A stretch of DNA of 62,831 bases from an uncultured Clostridia bacterium (lineage in GTDB: Bacteria; Bacillota; Clostridia; Christensenellales; UBA1242): contig CAMEKS010000003.1 in NCBI GenBank assembly GCA_945921465.1, positions 1 to 62,831 on the forward strand, read 5' to 3'. Each line of letters begins with the position of its first letter. Within the stretch, counting starts at the first letter, position 1. A program made the translations under genes and the position numbers. Below the pieces are notes generated by a model. That model did not search any database, was not told the DNA's origin, and worked only from the letters and a program-made list of their open reading frames with translations. Positions 29,633 through 58,749 of this stretch are shown here, piece after piece.

Positions 29633-30160
29633 TTAACGCTGTTGATTATTTTCTGCCATATCTATGTCTGCTTTAGTATTCGTATTGCGTGTTTCTTCCG
29701 TTACATCTCTGCCCAAATTATCAGTGTCGGCTTCGATGCCTTTATTATATGAATTAGAATCAATAGGATTTTGACTTAGGGTAGTGTCTGTATTATGATT
29801 AGATGTGGCGATGTTATCTCTTTCGCCAATATCTTGACCAGCCTCAGTTGTGGGGCGTGGAGATGTATAATACATATCTACGCCTTGACGCTCATATTCC
29901 TTTTTAGCGGGTGTTTTTTTCTTGAAATTAAACTTAATTTTGCCCTTATTTTCTATCAAATTGTATAACAACACCAATGCACCTAATCCCACGGCTATAT
30001 ACACAATCCTAGAAAACATACTACTTTGGCTACCAAATAATCCAGCCACAAAATCATATTGCAATAGCCCAATACAGAACCAGTTAATTGCTCCCACCAT
30101 TACAACAATAAATGATATTAATGCTAACATTGTATCCTCCGATATTTCTCTTTGATACAA
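29633..30160 (-). CDS. DUF378-domain membrane protein with long acidic tail (probable start 30130)
   Basis: VMVGAINWFCIGLLQYDFVAGLFG...RIVYIAVGL; GGAGG before ATG 30130. Confidence 0.85.
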   Translation of the reverse strand: MYQREISEDTMLALISFIVVMVGAINWFCIGLLQYDFVAGLFGSQSSMFSRIVYIAVGLGALVLLYNLIENKGKIKFNFKKKTPAKKEYERQGVDMYYTSPRPTTEAGQDIGERDNIATSNHNTDTTLSQNPIDSNSYNKGIEADTDNLGRDVTEETRNTNTKADIDMAENNQQR

Positions 30161-30317: not shown

Positions 30318-30638
30318 TTAATTAGTCTCATTGACTAGTTCTAATACATCGAAATATATCTTTTCTACAAAATCTTCTTTGGTATAAATTGTATGATTAA
30401 AAAGCATAAAGTTGCGTATATGTTTTACTAATGTTATGGGGTTAGGGATGTCAAGATTGTAACAAATATCAGCAACATAATGTTCGAATTCGGATATTTC
30501 ATAATTGGCGTCAGTCTCAAATATATATGTGGCCAATATTTTGTCCTTTTTCTTGGTTCGTGCACAAATTTTCAACATTATTTTTTTCCTTTTAATTAAT
30601 AATCGCATCAATTGTAATATTTTTTCATTTATTTTCAA
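30318..30638 (-). CDS. Small conserved clostridial hypothetical protein (probable start 30578)
   Basis: MLKICARTKKKDKI...ICYNLDIPNPI...EDFVEKIYFD pattern recalled from Clostridia. Confidence 0.7.
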   Translation of the reverse strand: MKINEKILQLMRLLIKRKKIMLKICARTKKKDKILATYIFETDANYEISEFEHYVADICYNLDIPNPITLVKHIRNFMLFNHTIYTKEDFVEKIYFDVLELVNETN

Positions 30639-30827
30639 AACTATTTTGCTTATTATCCCAATTATTTTTCTTAAGTGGGTATTGTAATAACTAATATACT
30701 ATGATAAAATATAATTAGAATAATGCTGTAAATATATGATAGTAACTAATGAAATAGAGTAATGTTATTATAAATTTTTATATGGCATAGTACAATCAGT
30801 ATAAAAATTTATTATTCAAAACGATAA

Positions 30828-31793
30828 GTGCAGTATTTGCTTTATTATTCAAAATTAGTTGCAGGGGTATATATGAGTAAAATAATTGATGGATACAAGA
30901 TAGATAACTTCGGATACATTATTGTTCCAACCAATTCTAAAATATTTGTTGATAGTAGAAGAACGGTAACTTTTAAGAGTCGCAAAATTAAACAATATTT
31001 CAAAGCAATTTACAAAAAATATGACTTTCTTGGTAATGGTTCGGATCAGCCAATAGATAACTTTGAATTGTTGAGTGAATTATATTTAAGCAGATTGGCA
31101 AATCTTGATTTTGGGTTAACAACACCAATTTACTATCCTGCCAAATATTTAACTAGTACTGGCAGTGAATATATTGGGGTTGTTTGTTCAGACTACACAC
31201 AAGGATATAGTCAGGTAGATAAGTCTATTACCATTAACAAAATGCTAAGCCCAACTATTAGGAATCTAAAACAATCTAAGACTTATTCATTATTGACAAA
31301 CAAGGCAAAACAAGACCTTAATACAACTATGTTTTTTGATTATATAACAGCACAAGGCGATAGATCTGGAGCAAACCTGGCTTTTGCCAAGAAAGATAAA
31401 AATCAAGAAAAATATGATACCACTATAGTCTTTGATTATGGCAACACATATCTTAGTTTGCTTAGGAATTATGACACTCATGACCTTCATAGACATCTAG
31501 ACGAGAATGGCAAATTATTCTTAGGTATAGATACTCCTATGGCAAGTTATGAGACTTTTCTAGATGAAGTGGAAACATCTACAATAATTAAATCAAAAGA
31601 CGTAAATCATTTTTTAGATAAAGCGATTAAATCGATTAAGTCTGGCACAGTAAAACTGATAGGTGAGGAACTAGAAGATAAATTTAACATTCCACAAAAT
31701 CCAAAGTATGAATTAATGCTTACGGAATGTATGAAATATCAGGCCGAAAGATTAGACAAGAGTCTTGAACAAAGAGAAAAAGAATTGTGTTAA
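30828..31793 (+). CDS. HipA/CtkA-like (PI3/4-kinase-like fold) kinase 1 (probable start ATG 30873)
   Basis: YFK, SELYLSRLA...LTTPIY, FDYITAQGDRSGANL, FDYGN. Confidence 0.8.
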   Translation: MQYLLYYSKLVAGVYMSKIIDGYKIDNFGYIIVPTNSKIFVDSRRTVTFKSRKIKQYFKAIYKKYDFLGNGSDQPIDNFELLSELYLSRLANLDFGLTTPIYYPAKYLTSTGSEYIGVVCSDYTQGYSQVDKSITINKMLSPTIRNLKQSKTYSLLTNKAKQDLNTTMFFDYITAQGDRSGANLAFAKKDKNQEKYDTTIVFDYGNTYLSLLRNYDTHDLHRHLDENGKLFLGIDTPMASYETFLDEVETSTIIKSKDVNHFLDKAIKSIKSGTVKLIGEELEDKFNIPQNPKYELMLTECMKYQAERLDKSLEQREKELC

Positions 31794-31940
31794 ATTGCTA
31801 CTTTTTGGTTATTAAAACGTAGCGAAAATAGATTTAATGCAATGTTGGTGACGAATGTGCCAGAAGGACTGATTATATATAACAAATTTTAATACAATTA
31901 AGATGTCACTTTGTAGCGGAATTGTGATAGTCCAAAAATT

Positions 31941-31976
31941 TTGCGAACGAAATCGAAGCAAATCAATTGTACATAG
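31941..31976. repeat. Fragment related to the right end of the 21651 element
   Basis: TTGCGAAC..AGCAAATC..ACATAG shared with 21817-21850. Confidence 0.5.
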
Positions 31977-32116
31977 AATATATATAATTTCTTTGCGCTA
32001 ATTGAAAAGTTTCTCAATACGTAGTATTCTATCTAACTAACAATCGTTGTCTGATTACTGGTGATGAATTGCAACTATTATTACATTATTGGATTAATTA
32101 TTTAGGAGAAATATAA

Positions 32117-33028
32117 ATGACTGAAATAAATAAATTAACGAGGGTTGGTGATAGTATTATTTTGCCTAGAAAGGCAGAATTTATTCCGTTTGTAGGTCGC
32201 ATCAAGCGATTTAAGTCAGATGGCGAAATGTATTATTACAAATCTGTTGATGAGAGCAGTTCGCCTGCAGATCTGAAGGTTAATGGCGAAATATTATGTG
32301 AATTATATCTTAGTCGATTGGCAAAAAATGATTTTGACTTGACAACACCTATATATTTTGTGGCAAAAGATATGGAATATTATGACAATTATTCAAGCAT
32401 AGGAGTACTTAACAAAGATTTTATGGCAGGCTATGGCCAAGTATCTCATTTGCAAATGGTGGGTGGGTCTAAAGATTTTTATAATCCAACTATTAAGATG
32501 ATTGTAGACAAAGGTATTGCCCAAAAGATGACTCCTGGAGCATTCAATGATATTAAGAAATTAATGTTTTTTGATTATCTTACAGCACAGACTGATAGGC
32601 ATGGGCGTAATATAGCGCTGGCATCAGAAGATACTTTCTGGAGTCCTATATATTCTACAGTAATAGCATATGATTATGGCAACAGTTTCTTGGCTTTTCG
32701 TGATTTAGACAATATTAATGAGATAGCAGTCTATAATCATTTGAACGATGCTGGAATGTTAAAACTTGGCTTAGATACACCTATGTCTACATACAAACAA
32801 TTTATCAATGAGACAATATCTTCAGATTATATATCATATTTTGATAGAATCAATGCTATTAATTCTGCGGCTAGTATTATAGACAAATCTAGAGTTTCAG
32901 AAATTGGCGAGGAACTGGAAAATGATATTAAACTAAACAGGCACAAAGGTTTTGAACATATTTTGGAAGAGTGTATCAAGATACAGGCTGACAAATTGGA
33001 TAATGCTAGTGCAACAATGAAACTATAA
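32117..33028 (+). CDS. HipA/CtkA-like kinase 2
   Basis: YYYK, CELYLSRLA...LTTPIY, FDYLTAQTDRHGRNI, YDYGN; AGGAG RBS. Confidence 0.85.
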   Translation: MTEINKLTRVGDSIILPRKAEFIPFVGRIKRFKSDGEMYYYKSVDESSSPADLKVNGEILCELYLSRLAKNDFDLTTPIYFVAKDMEYYDNYSSIGVLNKDFMAGYGQVSHLQMVGGSKDFYNPTIKMIVDKGIAQKMTPGAFNDIKKLMFFDYLTAQTDRHGRNIALASEDTFWSPIYSTVIAYDYGNSFLAFRDLDNINEIAVYNHLNDAGMLKLGLDTPMSTYKQFINETISSDYISYFDRINAINSAASIIDKSRVSEIGEELENDIKLNRHKGFEHILEECIKIQADKLDNASATMKL

Positions 33029-33041
33029 AAGGCATAAGAGA

Positions 33042-34025
33042 ATGGGGTTTATAGAAGATTTCAAAAAATATAATCGGGATAAAAATGGATTTGTTGTTCT
33101 TGATCCTTTGATCGAGAAGAACAATAGAAAAATATCTGATACTAAAAATCATATGCTGTTTACAAACAAAAATGGCAACAGATATTATTATAAAATTGAG
33201 GGCGCATGTAGCGACTTATACAAAGAACGACTGACTTCTTATAATAATTATAGTGGCCAATTTGCAGATAATGATGCATTTCTTTTGTCTGAAGTGGTTA
33301 ATTCAAGACTTGTTAATATGCTCGGTTTGTATTCACCAAAGTGCTATTTGGCTAGAATTGGCAAATATAAGGGTATAATTTCTCAAGACTATTGCAATCA
33401 ATATCCTGCTGCTTTCTCTTTAGCAGATTATACCCAGCGATATTTACATGGTCTTGATAATTATCTATACGCATCTATAGAAACGTTGACTAATTCTAAA
33501 AACTTGTCAGACAATATACTAAATCAATTAGGTCTTGCATCCCTAGTATATATAGGAACTGCACAGGCAGACAGCAATCAAGAAAATTTGGCAATATATG
33601 AGGGCGAAAAAACTGAAGACGATCAAGTTATTATGATAGACCATGCTAATACAAGGATTGCATTTTCTGGCGAACCTAGATTGGTTCAACGCAGTTATCA
33701 AAAAGGGAATTATAACCCTGTGCTTAATATAACAGACAATACATATGAAATTAGCGATTATTATAATGACCTAGTGACTTCTAAGTATATAAGCAAAGAT
33801 ACGATAGAACGTTATCTTAGTAATCTAGAGAAAGTATTGCATAACAATAATTTTATCTCTGATATTAATGCTGAGGTCAAGGAGTATTGTGGGCTAGTAG
33901 TCCCAAGAGAATTTATGGATATGTCAAAAGAGGTGCTATATTCAACGGGTGAGCATATACAAAATGCATATGATAAGCGGAAATTATTAGAAGAATCAAC
34001 TACTTATGATAATAGCTCAAAGTAG
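33042..34025 (+). CDS. HipA/CtkA-like kinase 3 (divergent)
   Basis: YYYK, SEVVNSRL...LGL, GIISQDY, AQADSNQENL, IDHAN. Confidence 0.7.
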   Translation: MGFIEDFKKYNRDKNGFVVLDPLIEKNNRKISDTKNHMLFTNKNGNRYYYKIEGACSDLYKERLTSYNNYSGQFADNDAFLLSEVVNSRLVNMLGLYSPKCYLARIGKYKGIISQDYCNQYPAAFSLADYTQRYLHGLDNYLYASIETLTNSKNLSDNILNQLGLASLVYIGTAQADSNQENLAIYEGEKTEDDQVIMIDHANTRIAFSGEPRLVQRSYQKGNYNPVLNITDNTYEISDYYNDLVTSKYISKDTIERYLSNLEKVLHNNNFISDINAEVKEYCGLVVPREFMDMSKEVLYSTGEHIQNAYDKRKLLEESTTYDNSSK

Positions 34026-34085: not shown

Positions 34086-34114
34086 TTGACAAATATACAT
34101 AAATAATATATAAT
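34086..34114 (+). promoter_or_regulatory. SigmaA promoter of greA
   Basis: TTGACA-17-TATAAT perfect consensus. Confidence 0.9.
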
Positions 34115-34126
34115 ACCACGTAAATT

Positions 34127-34651
34127 TTGGGAAAAGTGTTTCCCAAATTATTTTTTAGGAGGCGTAGAGTTATGGCTGAGCAAGTTTATTTGACCAAAGA
34201 GGGTTATAAGGAGCTAGAGGCAAGATTATTATATCTTAAGAGTGAAGGCAGAGTGGCTGTTGCAGAGAAGATAAGTGTAGCTAGGTCTTTTGGTGATATT
34301 AGCGAGAATAGTGAATATGATGCTGCTAGAGAAGAAGAAGCACTTCTAGAGCAAGAAATTGTAGAGATAGAGAATACTTTGCGTAATGCTAAGATTATAT
34401 CCAAGTCAAAAATTAACCAAGACAAAATTAATGTAGGCGCAACCGTTAAGGTATATGACAAAGAGTTTGACGAAGAGTTGACATTTAAGATTATTGGTAG
34501 TTTTGAGTCTGATCCCGCTAAAGGATTGATTAGTAATGAGAGTCCTACAGGCAAAGCTTTGTTAGGTAAATCTGTTGGAGACAAGGCTGTGGTAGAGGTT
34601 GAGGGGACTAATACTAAGATCACTTATGAGATACTTGATATTAAATACTAG
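34127..34651 (+). CDS. greA: Transcription elongation factor GreA (probable start ATG 34172)
   Basis: LTKEGY, ARSFGDISENSEYDAA, ISNESPTGKALLG; AGGAGG RBS. Confidence 0.97.
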   Translation: MGKVFPKLFFRRRRVMAEQVYLTKEGYKELEARLLYLKSEGRVAVAEKISVARSFGDISENSEYDAAREEEALLEQEIVEIENTLRNAKIISKSKINQDKINVGATVKVYDKEFDEELTFKIIGSFESDPAKGLISNESPTGKALLGKSVGDKAVVEVEGTNTKITYEILDIKY

Positions 34652-34698: not shown

Positions 34699-34852
34699 AA
34701 TTTTCGAGAAGTTGAGTTGTTATCGCTATTGCTCACGACTCTGCTTGCAACCGCAATTCTGCTATAGATTGCGACATTTAGACTATAACTAACAGTTATA
34801 TACTATATAATTAGATTGTGTCTATCATGTTAAACATAGAGACAAGTAGCAC

Positions 34853-35089
34853 CAGATAGTGACTAACAAGAGAGTTAATCCTTTGGCTGGAAGATTAACA
34901 AGGAAGTCTGGCAGTGAAACCGCTTGATTGTAATGGATAGGGTTGGGTCATTACCATATTTGACCAAAATTAAGAGTGGTGACAGATTATAATCTGCACA
35001 ATTAAGGTGGAACCACGGAAAAATTTGTTAATAATTTTTTCGCCCTTAAGAAAAGTATGTTTTTTACTTTTTTTAAGAGCGATTTTTTT
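34853..35089 (+). ncRNA. T-box riboswitch, Thr specifier
   Basis: AGAGA and GGCTGGAAG stem I boxes; GTGAA-ACC-G specifier (ACC = Thr, 34919-21); T-box AATTAAGGTGGAACCACGG (35000-18); terminator 35040-35089 with U-run. Confidence 0.95.
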
Positions 35090-57009: not shown

Positions 57010-58749
57010 ATGTTTCAAATACATATAATTATTTGTACTAATATGTCAGTTATTGCATTTTTGGTACTAAAATTTTTGAAAATAATTTATATTATGGAGA
57101 AAGAAATGAACGATAATCAGAAGATAGCGGAGTTGTTGTTTCCTAACATAACTACAACACCAGAGTATTATTATAAGAAATATCCTAAGAGATATCTGAA
57201 AGACGGTGCGGAGGTCACTCGTATTGCACCTAGCCCAACTGGGTTCTATCATATTGGTGGCCTATATCAAGCAGTTATTGACAAGTTTGTTGCTGCGAAG
57301 TCTGGTGGCGTCTTCTATATGAGATTAGAGGATACTGACCAGAAACGAGAAATTGCTGACGCTGGTAATATTGCTTATGAGGCTTTGAGATATTATGGAG
57401 TAACCACCCAAGAAGGGTATATGGGTTCTTTAGGCGAGTCTGGTGAGTATGGTCCATATATCCAAAGCCACAGAGCAGAAATTTATCAGTCATTTGCTAA
57501 ATATTTGGTATCTATTGGCAGGGCATATCCATGTTTTTGTACTAAAGCAGAAGATAAAGCTGAAATATTAGAGAGGAGAGAAAAAGAACTAGAAGAAGGA
57601 ACTCTAATAATGCACGACAAGTGTCGTGAACTGACTTTATCGGAGATTGAGGATAATCTTAAAGCTGGTAAGCCTTTTGCAATTAGGTTGAAGTCTATGG
57701 GCGACCCTGACAAGACATTTACATTCCGTGATGAAATCAAGGGCGAAAGAGAGATAAGAGAGAATGGCAAGGATATTGTTATTCTAAAAAGTGATGGTAT
57801 TCCTCCATATTGTCTGGCACATCTAGTAGATGATACATTGATGGGTACAACTACTGTTGTTCGTGGTGAAGAATGGTATCAGTCTTTGGCTAGTCATATA
57901 GAGTTATTTGACGCTTTTGGTTTGCCTAGATTAAAATATGCTCACACTCCAGTCATATCTAAATTAGATAATGGCAATAAGCGAAAAATAAGCAAACGTA
58001 AAGATGTAGAAGCTGATTCTAGAAGTTTCCGAATTATGGGCTATCCAAAAGAAGCAGTTGTTGAATATTTAGTGACATTAGCCAACTCTGACTTCGAAGA
58101 CTGGCGTGCGGCTAATCCTGATGCAAAACTGCTAGACTTTCCTTTCTCAGTATCTAAGATTGGTTCTAACAATCCAATATTTGATTGGGCAAAATTGAAT
58201 GATATATCTAAGAACATTATAGCAAGATATTCTGCAGAAGAGATCTATAATAAGTCGTTGGCTTGGGCGAAAGAATACAATATGGATTTTGCTAAGAAAT
58301 TGGAAGATAACAAGGAATATGCTATATCTGTATTCAATATAGATAGGGAAATAGCAAAACCACGAAAAGATATTGCTAAGTGGGAAGATTTACCATCGTA
58401 TTATGACTATATGTTCAATGAATATGCAACTCTTAATGTTGATTTGGCGCAACTAGATATGAATGTTTTGGATATTCGTAACATTGTAGAAGATTATGTC
58501 AATACATTTGATTTTGGTGCAGACAAAGATCAATGGTTTGCTAGGGTTAAAGAATTAGCAGTCAAGCATAATTTCTGTATTGATAACAAACTGTACAAAG
58601 TAGATCCAACTAAATACAACGGAAATTTGGCAAAATTTTGTACTATAATACGGGTTGCACTTACGGGCAAGACTAACACACCTGACCTATATTCAATATG
58701 TATGTCTTTGGGTAAACGAGAATTGAAAAATAGGGCTCAGGCAATTTAA
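57010..58749 (+). CDS. gltX: Glutamate--tRNA ligase (probable start ATG 57106)
   Basis: TRIAPSPTG..HIGG, RLEDTD, YGPYIQS, VVRGEEW, KISKR. Confidence 0.95.
   Translation: MFQIHIIICTNMSVIAFLVLKFLKIIYIMEKEMNDNQKIAELLFPNITTTPEYYYKKYPKRYLKDGAEVTRIAPSPTGFYHIGGLYQAVIDKFVAAKSGGVFYMRLEDTDQKREIADAGNIAYEALRYYGVTTQEGYMGSLGESGEYGPYIQSHRAEIYQSFAKYLVSIGRAYPCFCTKAEDKAEILERREKELEEGTLIMHDKCRELTLSEIEDNLKAGKPFAIRLKSMGDPDKTFTFRDEIKGEREIRENGKDIVILKSDGIPPYCLAHLVDDTLMGTTTVVRGEEWYQSLASHIELFDAFGLPRLKYAHTPVISKLDNGNKRKISKRKDVEADSRSFRIMGYPKEAVVEYLVTLANSDFEDWRAANPDAKLLDFPFSVSKIGSNNPIFDWAKLNDISKNIIARYSAEEIYNKSLAWAKEYNMDFAKKLEDNKEYAISVFNIDREIAKPRKDIAKWEDLPSYYDYMFNEYATLNVDLAQLDMNVLDIRNIVEDYVNTFDFGADKDQWFARVKELAVKHNFCIDNKLYKVDPTKYNGNLAKFCTIIRVALTGKTNTPDLYSICMSLGKRELKNRAQAI

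Follow-up and report, generated by a model that had tools for sequence, protein, structure and literature searches.

Kinases of the Hip fold have been studied almost exclusively as toxins that are restrained by a neighbouring antidote, and the main survey and phylogeny of these enzymes retained only kinases having an adjacent antitoxin (Gerdes et al. 2021, PMC8262856). A different setting is known for CtkA (JHP0940; PDB 3AKJ/3AKK/3AKL) of Helicobacter pylori, a stand-alone kinase that the tfs3 conjugative element carries as cargo and whose basic C-terminal tail has been linked to type IV secretion (PMC5536186). Here we describe three tandem kinase genes, K1, K2 and K3, found in a 62,831-nucleotide stretch of DNA (the window) from an uncultured Clostridia bacterium of the Christensenellales, UBA1242 (GenBank assembly GCA_945921465.1, contig CAMEKS010000003.1, positions 1 to 62,831, forward strand). 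The source genome, from a gut bacterium, is about 1.17 Mb, 95% complete and of low G+C content, and these three are its only copies. Their fold and chemistry are already known from CtkA, HipT and HipA; for antitoxin-free tandem arrays of Hip/CtkA-type kinases at a fixed housekeeping site, we found no prior description in the literature searched, and these proteins are unnamed in the sources consulted. On balance, we lean towards a partner-less kinase family that is retained by its lineage and acts on cytoplasmic proteins.

Several described kinases resemble the trio in part. CtkA likewise has ~300–325 amino acids (aa), stands alone, lacks the N-terminal subdomain and an antitoxin, and shares the SE...DRHxxN...FDxG motifs. 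The structure-based identity is 11–15%, compared with ~50% for reported CtkA homologues (PMC5536186), so that clear whole-protein sequence similarity to CtkA is lacking; the trio also differs from CtkA in its chromosomal housekeeping setting, its lack of a basic tail and its membership of a multi-copy tandem family. The short-core kinases HipI, HipJ, HipG and HipM, together with HipT, are similar in length (279–346 aa), in the absence of N-subdomain-1 and in their catalytic and Mg-binding motifs (PMC8262856). By definition, however, those families have an adjacent antitoxin of the HipS, HipS-HIRAN, Stl-like or resolvase-like type, while the trio has none, and the family to which the trio belongs differs further in forming arrays of up to nine genes and in having no recognisable Gly-rich loop motif. 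HipH/YjjJ of Escherichia coli is, like the trio, a Hip-fold kinase without an adjacent antitoxin gene (PMC8262856, PMC9948734), but it is about 440 aa long, single-copy and equipped with an N-terminal helix-turn-helix (HTH) domain proposed to act in cis, in contrast to the tandem, HTH-free trio. HipA of E. coli K-12 (hipBA) shares the kinase-core fold (Foldseek E ~1e-6, template modelling (TM) score ~0.5) and differs by its ~100-aa N-subdomain-1, its Gly-rich loop with the autophosphorylated Ser150, and its HipB antitoxin.

A first reading of this DNA, made from the sequence alone (the sequence-only reading), had described the three genes as stand-alone HipA/CtkA-like kinases, and structure prediction bore this out. 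AlphaFold models were built with the family alignment for K2 (predicted local distance difference test score, pLDDT, 90.3; predicted TM score, pTM, 0.91) and K3 (pLDDT 88.3, pTM 0.90), the two proteins modelled, and both were kinase-like. Foldseek comparison with the PDB placed H. pylori CtkA at the top for both, over about 300–320 aligned columns and with TM scores of 0.58–0.69; the best match was at E 1e-8 and TM 0.64–0.69 for K2 and at E 1.6e-8 and TM 0.68 for K3. Next in the ranking came Legionella and E. coli HipT, HipA, type II phosphatidylinositol 4-kinases (PI4-kinases) and CotH, and the matches to HipA, HipT and HipT(Lp) (E 4e-7 to 1e-4, TM 0.39–0.61) identify a HipA/HipT-like kinase-core fold. 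CtkA was also the best match when the family profile was compared with PDB sequences (E 5e-5), in an alignment limited to the core (CtkA residues 52–234) that pairs the SE helix, DRHxGN and FDxGS. Against Pfam HipA_C (PF07804), K2 scored 21.6 bits (E 1.9e-4), under the 30.5-bit gathering cut-off; K1 and K3 had no HipA_C match, 5 of 31 family members had sub-threshold matches, and NCBIfam returned nothing for K1–K3. Distant relatives found with the family profile in the same bacterial family passed HipA_C at 33–39.6 bits. Since the direct matches stay sub-threshold, the kinship of the trio with the HipA_C superfamily is reached only via these distant intermediates. We conclude that K1–K3 are divergent short-core members of the HipA_C superfamily, with CtkA as their nearest characterised relative.

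Alternatively, the products might phosphorylate lipids or small molecules, or might be pseudokinases whose only function is to bind a nucleotide or a partner. The DRHxxN and DxG motifs are common to PI3/PI4-kinases, which are among the weak Pfam and Foldseek matches, only generic kinases of the PI3K/PI4K type came up when viral proteins were searched by fold, a Gly-rich loop is not visible, and the catalytic-loop His is missing from K1 and K3. We nevertheless consider this explanation highly improbable. Pfam PI3_PI4_kinase matched only 2 of 31 members, sub-threshold (best E 5e-4), and TM scores to PI4KII (0.37–0.46) are well under the 0.51–0.69 obtained with CtkA, so that membership of that family is not supported; CotH and the type II PI4-kinases, atypical kinase folds among the Foldseek matches (E 2e-6 to 1e-4), have TM scores of 0.37–0.50, and no Pfam match to CotH or PI3_PI4_kinase reached threshold. 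The five catalytic residues described below are invariant in all paralogues, which argues against pseudokinases, and among characterised proteins the closest, CtkA, HipT and HipA, all act as Ser/Thr protein kinases.

K1 and K2 had been called clear paralogues, and the two proteins indeed align at 37% identity over 294 aa (E 4e-51). K3 matches K1 at E 1e-8 and K2 at E 0.034 only; by these comparisons K3 is a distant paralogue of K1/K2, and the kinship of the trio is well beyond chance. The quoted motifs YFK/YYK, SE/CE..SRL, TAQxD...N and D(Y/H)(G/A)N are all present. In an alignment of 31 family members, K42, E62, D160, N165 and D186 (K2 numbering) are the sole invariant columns, and the same five residues are 100% conserved in a 34-member alignment in which overall identity is about 20–28%. 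They correspond to the kinase Lys, the helix-C Glu, the catalytic Asp and the metal-binding Asn and Asp, and because these are kept, each copy is most likely an active ATP-dependent Ser/Thr kinase. The most variable segments of the 34-sequence alignment are residues 48–56, 101–139 and 191–225, the last at the position of the activation segment. Because the paralogues vary mainly in surface segments, they probably respond to different triggers or act on different substrates. An N-terminal D-K-x-G-[FY] turn is conserved as well, with Gly in 79% of the 34 members, and might be the counterpart of the Gly-rich loop.

The C-termini of the trio differ (K1 ...REKELC, K2 ...ATMKL, K3 ...YDNSSK). The extreme C-terminus is ...R-x-x-x-G-E in nine of 31 family members and Cys in four, K1 among them. 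Such ends, shared by paralogues that have diverged elsewhere, might be signals for recognition or sorting; K2 and K3 have neither.

The family is tiny, comprising about 30 clusters, and all its known members come from this bacterial clade. Word-index searches recovered nothing beyond the query, as in the search of 5.8 billion proteins, or one other member. An exhaustive HMMER search with the three-protein profile found 43 proteins at E <= 1e-3 among 1.84 billion cluster representatives (29 of them at E <= 1e-10), nearly all full-length at about 300 aa. Related assemblies carry the labels 'Clostridia bacterium' or 'uncultured Christensenella sp.'. When same-genus genomes were located through GreA and their flanks compared, the kinase array was always found in the slot between a gene for an 86-aa protein and greA, in numbers that differed between species. 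The window genome (G000) has three copies at this site, G151 (GreA 82% identical to that of the window) has one, G166 (87%) and G167 (84%) have two each, and G171 (84%) has nine, contiguous or overlapping, in a 1.3-Mb genome. In three more distant members of the genus (G161, G115 and G163; GreA about 70% identical) the site is empty. A maximum-likelihood tree of the family has two deep clades, with K1 and K2 in clade A and K3 in clade B, terminal branches of ~1 substitution per site and no grouping of paralogues according to genome; for many of the nine copies in G171 there is a separate orthologue elsewhere, with 44–68% identity. Read from the tree, the history is one of old duplication followed by differential retention. 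The best between-species matches of the arrays reach just 26–30% identity, compared with 66–73% for ArgS and 81–86% for GreA at the same loci, because non-orthologous old paralogues are being compared, and this low identity does not imply runaway evolution.

Other changes were seen at the same site. The orientation of greA with respect to the array is reversed in the G166-type species, where nuoE/nuoF-like and Fe-hydrogenase genes, and not thrS, come after greA; a rearrangement breakpoint therefore falls exactly at the array edge. The same species has two acidic ~200-aa genes without a family match, on the same strand, between the 86-aa gene and its two kinases; they are conserved in seven strains with ratios of nonsynonymous to synonymous substitution rates (dN/dS) of 0.19 and 0.10, indicating real genes. 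They could encode partners or substrates of the kinases, and they have no equivalent in the window. Genus members with an empty site (loci L027 and L028) carry a three-gene cassette between the 86-aa gene and a DUF378 gene, which by eye encodes a membrane protein, a glycosyltransferase-like and an acyltransferase-like protein, so that the neighbourhood takes other insertions too.

Within a species, the kinases are stable. All seven strains of the G166-type sister species have the same two kinases in an identical gene order, with dN/dS of 0.10 and 0.21 (pooled pairwise); for comparison, argS, greA, nuoF and hydA gave 0.015–0.07 and nuoE 0.23 in the same strains. The amino-acid polymorphisms of the kinases spare the catalytic loop and the metal-binding Asp motif. 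The kinase copies of this species are thus under purifying selection, and gene-wide positive selection of the kind expected from an arms race is unsupported by these values. The base composition of the array region is unremarkable, no flanking repeats were found around it, and searches of viral contigs, JGI metagenome contigs, phage records and plasmid records gave no kinase relatives; cargo of a mobile element or prophage was rejected on these grounds.

These observations also bear on the possibility that the array serves as a repertoire for abortive infection against phages. The individual kinases would then be inactive unless activated by a phage protein or presented with one as a substrate, and would stop the infection by phosphorylating host or phage proteins; paralogues would serve against different phages, and no antitoxin would be needed. 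A role in abortive infection has been suggested for Hip kinases that have Stl-like partners (PMC8262856). The PADLOC check called for by the sequence-only reading returned weak matches to PDC-M03A, the HipA-like kinase of PDC-M03, a two-gene phage-defence candidate that also comprises a HIRAN protein, component B (PMC13245101): K2 matched at E 5.6e-5, K3 at E 5.7e-3 and K1 not at all, and 20 of 31 family members matched, the best at E 1.6e-10. The range of zero to nine copies between species, the deep divergence of the paralogues and the probable cytoplasmic location of the proteins would fit this explanation too. However, the HIRAN component is absent beside the array, there is no defence island or mobile element, relatives were not found in phages, plasmids or other phyla, and inheritance looks vertical and clade-confined. 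The fixed gene content of the seven strains, at dN/dS of 0.1–0.2, is unlike that of strain-variable defence genes. We therefore judge an abortive-infection role unlikely.

The absence of an adjacent HipB-like HTH or HipS gene, claimed earlier, held up when the neighbourhood was searched for a partner. The array is flanked by genes for MgtC, ArgS, a DUF378 membrane protein and the 86-aa protein (the latter two on the other strand) on one side and for GreA, ThrS and SbcCD on the other, and no HTH, HipS or HIRAN domain was detected among the proteins of these neighbours; of the Hip antitoxin types (HipB HTH, HipS, HipS-HIRAN, Stl-like and resolvase-like), none adjoins the array. The divergent 86-aa gene was considered as an antitoxin and ruled out, as it adjoins greA directly in related genomes that have no kinase. 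Its product has no Pfam match, is 70–81% identical across related species and shows a within-species dN/dS of 0.02. The K1–K2 gap, where an antitoxin had been suggested as a possible objection, holds no credible candidate either: its largest open reading frames (ORFs) encode 49 aa (minus strand) and 32 aa (plus strand, no ribosome-binding site), Rfam gave no significant match (a single chance match, E 0.14, sub-threshold), the predicted fold is not unusual (z -0.6), and there is no kinase remnant. An antitoxin in the gap is therefore ruled out, the more so as other arrays have no such gap. In the nine-copy array, spacing ranges from overlaps to about 20 base pairs (bp), leaving no space for partner genes.

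A candidate partner gene is found beside more distant relatives. Such relatives, often in tandem, were present in 23 of the 151 genomes that were sampled across the bacterial family of the window genome, and they fall into two size classes of about 310–400 aa and about 495–545 aa. In 11 of 19 of their loci, all in other genera, a conserved gene of ~108 aa lies 3' of the kinase on the same strand. By hhalign it is in register with residues 3–66 of E. coli HipA, which form the HipS-homologous N-subdomain-1, at an E value of 0.24 that is not significant, and it has no match to Pfam or to PDB sequences. The gene may encode an undescribed HipS-type partner, and the finding hints at a hipJS-like ancestry of the wider family (for the hipJS-type organisation, see PMC8262856). 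A profile of this gene gave no match in the window or in the array loci. As a separate observation, members of the longer class have a C-terminal extension of ~250 aa without a Pfam match and form tandem arrays of two or three (loci L004, L007, L008, L013 and L018, of genomes G106, G057, G003, G060 and G100).

Two readings of different strength draw on this gene. The first is that K1–K3 are classic Hip dormancy toxins that have an unlinked antidote or are self-inhibited through autophosphorylation. They would phosphorylate aminoacyl-tRNA synthetases or similar proteins and so arrest growth; ArgS, ThrS or GltX of the window would be possible targets. The Hip fold and catalytic motif, the HipS-like gene at 11 of 19 distant loci, the position of the array between argS and thrS, and the existence of monocistronic toxic Hip kinases such as HipH/YjjJ (PMC8262856) are all compatible with it. 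We find this reading distinctly improbable. The ~108-aa gene has no relative in the window or at the array loci and its likeness to HipS is insignificant (E 0.24), nine unneutralised toxins in one 1.3-Mb genome seem implausible, and the order argS...greA-thrS is kinase-free in related genomes, so that the linkage is probably coincidental. The gltX-type gene (Pfam tRNA-synt_1c) is, as had been noted, in the window but unlinked, about 23 kb from the array. That gltX, argS and thrS lie near the array is most reasonably put down to chance, since related genomes have this gene order but no kinases.

The second is that a HipJS-type toxin kinase turned into an ordinary cellular kinase in small-genome gut Clostridia, which we regard as a speculative and rather unlikely course of events. 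The ~108-aa HipS-like partner, still present beside the relatives in sister genera, would have been lost, and antitoxin-free arrays of up to nine genes would have followed. The arrays would then be diversified Ser/Thr signalling kinases that may replace or supplement Hanks-type kinases.

CtkA, as the best structural and sequence match, raises the further possibility of a set of exported effectors that phosphorylate proteins of the gut epithelium or of neighbouring microbes. CtkA homologues have been reported in other gut bacteria (PMC5536186), the organism is a gut bacterium with a reduced 1.17-Mb genome and an expansion of this family, and the C-terminal ...R-x-x-x-G-E or Cys of several members is a possible sorting signal. 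On inspection, however, the N-termini of K1–K3 show no signal peptide, as the sequence-only reading had stated; the basic C-terminal tail that CtkA needs for type IV secretion and a conjugative-element context are likewise missing, the array has no secretion genes beside it, the proteins are just 11–15% identical to CtkA, and K2 and K3 lack the C-terminal endings. Export of these proteins is thus quite unlikely in our view.

We return to the partner-less, lineage-retained family as the reading that we somewhat favour. Fold, catalytic residues, the absence of a linked partner, the site, the copy number and purifying selection are its observed basis, from which we infer activity, substrates, location and role as follows. 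K1–K3 would be old, diverged paralogues of a clade-specific group of short-core Hip/CtkA-type kinases without the N-terminal subdomain of HipA, whose genes were duplicated in tandem at a single fixed place on the chromosome, in the divergent promoter region that separates the 86-aa gene from greA. A toxin-type enzyme thus appears to have been maintained and expanded into an ordinary family of chromosomal genes. Later gain and loss, differing by species, would have led to the present range of zero to nine copies, each retained by purifying selection. Cytoplasmic action is expected, as there is no signal peptide. Most likely, each paralogue would phosphorylate a different cytoplasmic protein, of the cell itself or possibly of a phage, and would thereby modulate growth or translation in the manner of other Hip kinases. 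Control would be exerted through expression or autophosphorylation, with no bound antidote. Since the array has no adjacent antitoxin and is not mobile, it does not appear to be a toxin–antitoxin pair or a defence island. The sequence-only reading had proposed an effector, defence or dormancy module; the mobile-defence and classic toxin–antitoxin parts of that proposal are weakened, because the array is chromosomal, known only from this clade, fixed within a species and under purifying selection.

Some observations weigh against this interpretation. The His of the D-x-H loop, present in 74% of the family, is absent from K1 (DRS) and K3 (DSN), and a GxGxxG or SxxGxQxK Gly-rich loop is not evident in the sequences of K1–K3, in line with the earlier note, so that certain copies may be weak or altered enzymes. 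Judged against the alignment, the catalytic-loop divergence of K1 and K3 is nevertheless within normal family variation, with Asp and Asn retained. The range of zero to nine copies and the very deep divergence of the paralogues would also be expected of a conflict-driven family. The housekeeping neighbourhood is possibly little informative, as the genes of a 1.17-Mb genome are mostly housekeeping genes. Finally, CtkA, the closest solved structure, has been described as a delivered effector and not as a cytoplasmic regulator (PMC5536186).

At the level of the genes, three co-directional forward-strand ORFs were confirmed at 30828–31793, 32117–33028 and 33042–34025, as had been reported, with one amendment. 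K1 most likely starts at ATG 30873 rather than at GTG 30828, because an AGGGG Shine-Dalgarno-like sequence lies upstream, a second assembly calls a 306-aa protein, and this start fits the N-termini of the family. K2 has a strong AGGAG ribosome-binding site, and K3 starts 14 bp past K2, with which it is probably co-transcribed. The number of promoter-like sites in the region does not exceed that in shuffled sequence, and the assignment of a promoter to K1 is therefore tentative. DNA repeats in the region are limited to the homologous coding stretches of K1 and K2. Coordinates of these and other features are collected in Table 1.

Table 1. Features of the kinase array, its surroundings and related loci.
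Feature	Sequence	Position	Strand	Description
DUF378 gene	window	29633-30160	-	membrane protein
86-aa gene	window	30318..30578	-	left border of the array; called as 86 aa in second assembly
Promoter-like site upstream of K1	window	30682..30710	+	TTGTAA, 17 nucleotides, TAAAAT, with TG; consensus scan only
K1	window	30873..31793	+	306-aa short-core Hip/CtkA-like kinase; family tree clade A with K2
K1 catalytic loop	window	31347-31376	+	TAQGDRSGAN; FDYGN downstream
K1-K2 spacer	window	31794..32116		323 bp, non-coding; hairpin directly 3' of the K1 stop
Promoter-like site before K2	window	32002-32030		within the K1-K2 spacer; with AGGAG ribosome-binding site
K2	window	32117..33028	+	303-aa kinase; invariant residues K42, E62, D160, N165, D186
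K2 catalytic loop	window	32582-32611	+	TAQTDRHGRN; most canonical of the trio; YDYGN motif
K3	window	33042..34025	+	327-aa kinase; family tree clade B
K3 catalytic loop	window	33558-33587	+	TAQADSNQEN; loop and IDHAN divergent; Lys, Glu, Asp, Asn, Asp kept
greA	window	34086..34651	+	right border of the array; coding 34172-34651; promoter TTGACA-17-TATAAT (34086-34114), perfect consensus
Hairpin and U-run	window	34126-34157		terminator-like; between greA promoter and ribosome-binding site
T-box leader	window	34830-35050		upstream of thrS
gltX-type gene	window	57094-58749		Pfam tRNA-synt_1c
~108-aa gene (example)	L011	2337-2660	+	consensus start MKIxLxxKxxxLGxLS..Y.Y; found at L004, L007-L012, L014-L016, L020
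Acidic ~200-aa genes	L023	2385-3017 and 3052-3669		G166-type species; equal to L112 4579-5211 and 5270-5863
Rearranged array edge	L023; L112	5929-7259; 8123-13008		G166-type species
Three-gene cassette	L027; L028	6128-8631; 9496-12156		empty-site genus members
DUF378 gene	L112	3353-3919		G166-type species

Three further observations concern the flanking genes. The terminator-like hairpin and U-run in the greA leader suggest attenuation of greA. The T-box leader upstream of thrS scored 54.6 bits (E 3.4e-10), under the Rfam gathering score of 93. The DUF378 protein has a long low-complexity C-terminal tail rich in Asn, Asp and Thr, which is near-neutral within a species (dN/dS 0.80).

The family takes up 0.3–0.7% of a genome of roughly 1.2 Mb, which suggests that it is important to the organism, and it raises the question of how a cell tolerates as many as nine Hip-type kinases without partners. 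Provided that the proteins are active, either they are non-toxic and the fold has cellular roles other than that of a toxin, or they are restrained by means that have not been described; either answer would broaden the known range of roles for HipA/CtkA-like kinases in gut bacteria. Should the arrays indeed descend from a HipJS-type toxin, they would document a path from a selfish toxin to a cellular signalling family. The family would also offer harmless relatives for studying recognition by CtkA-type kinases.

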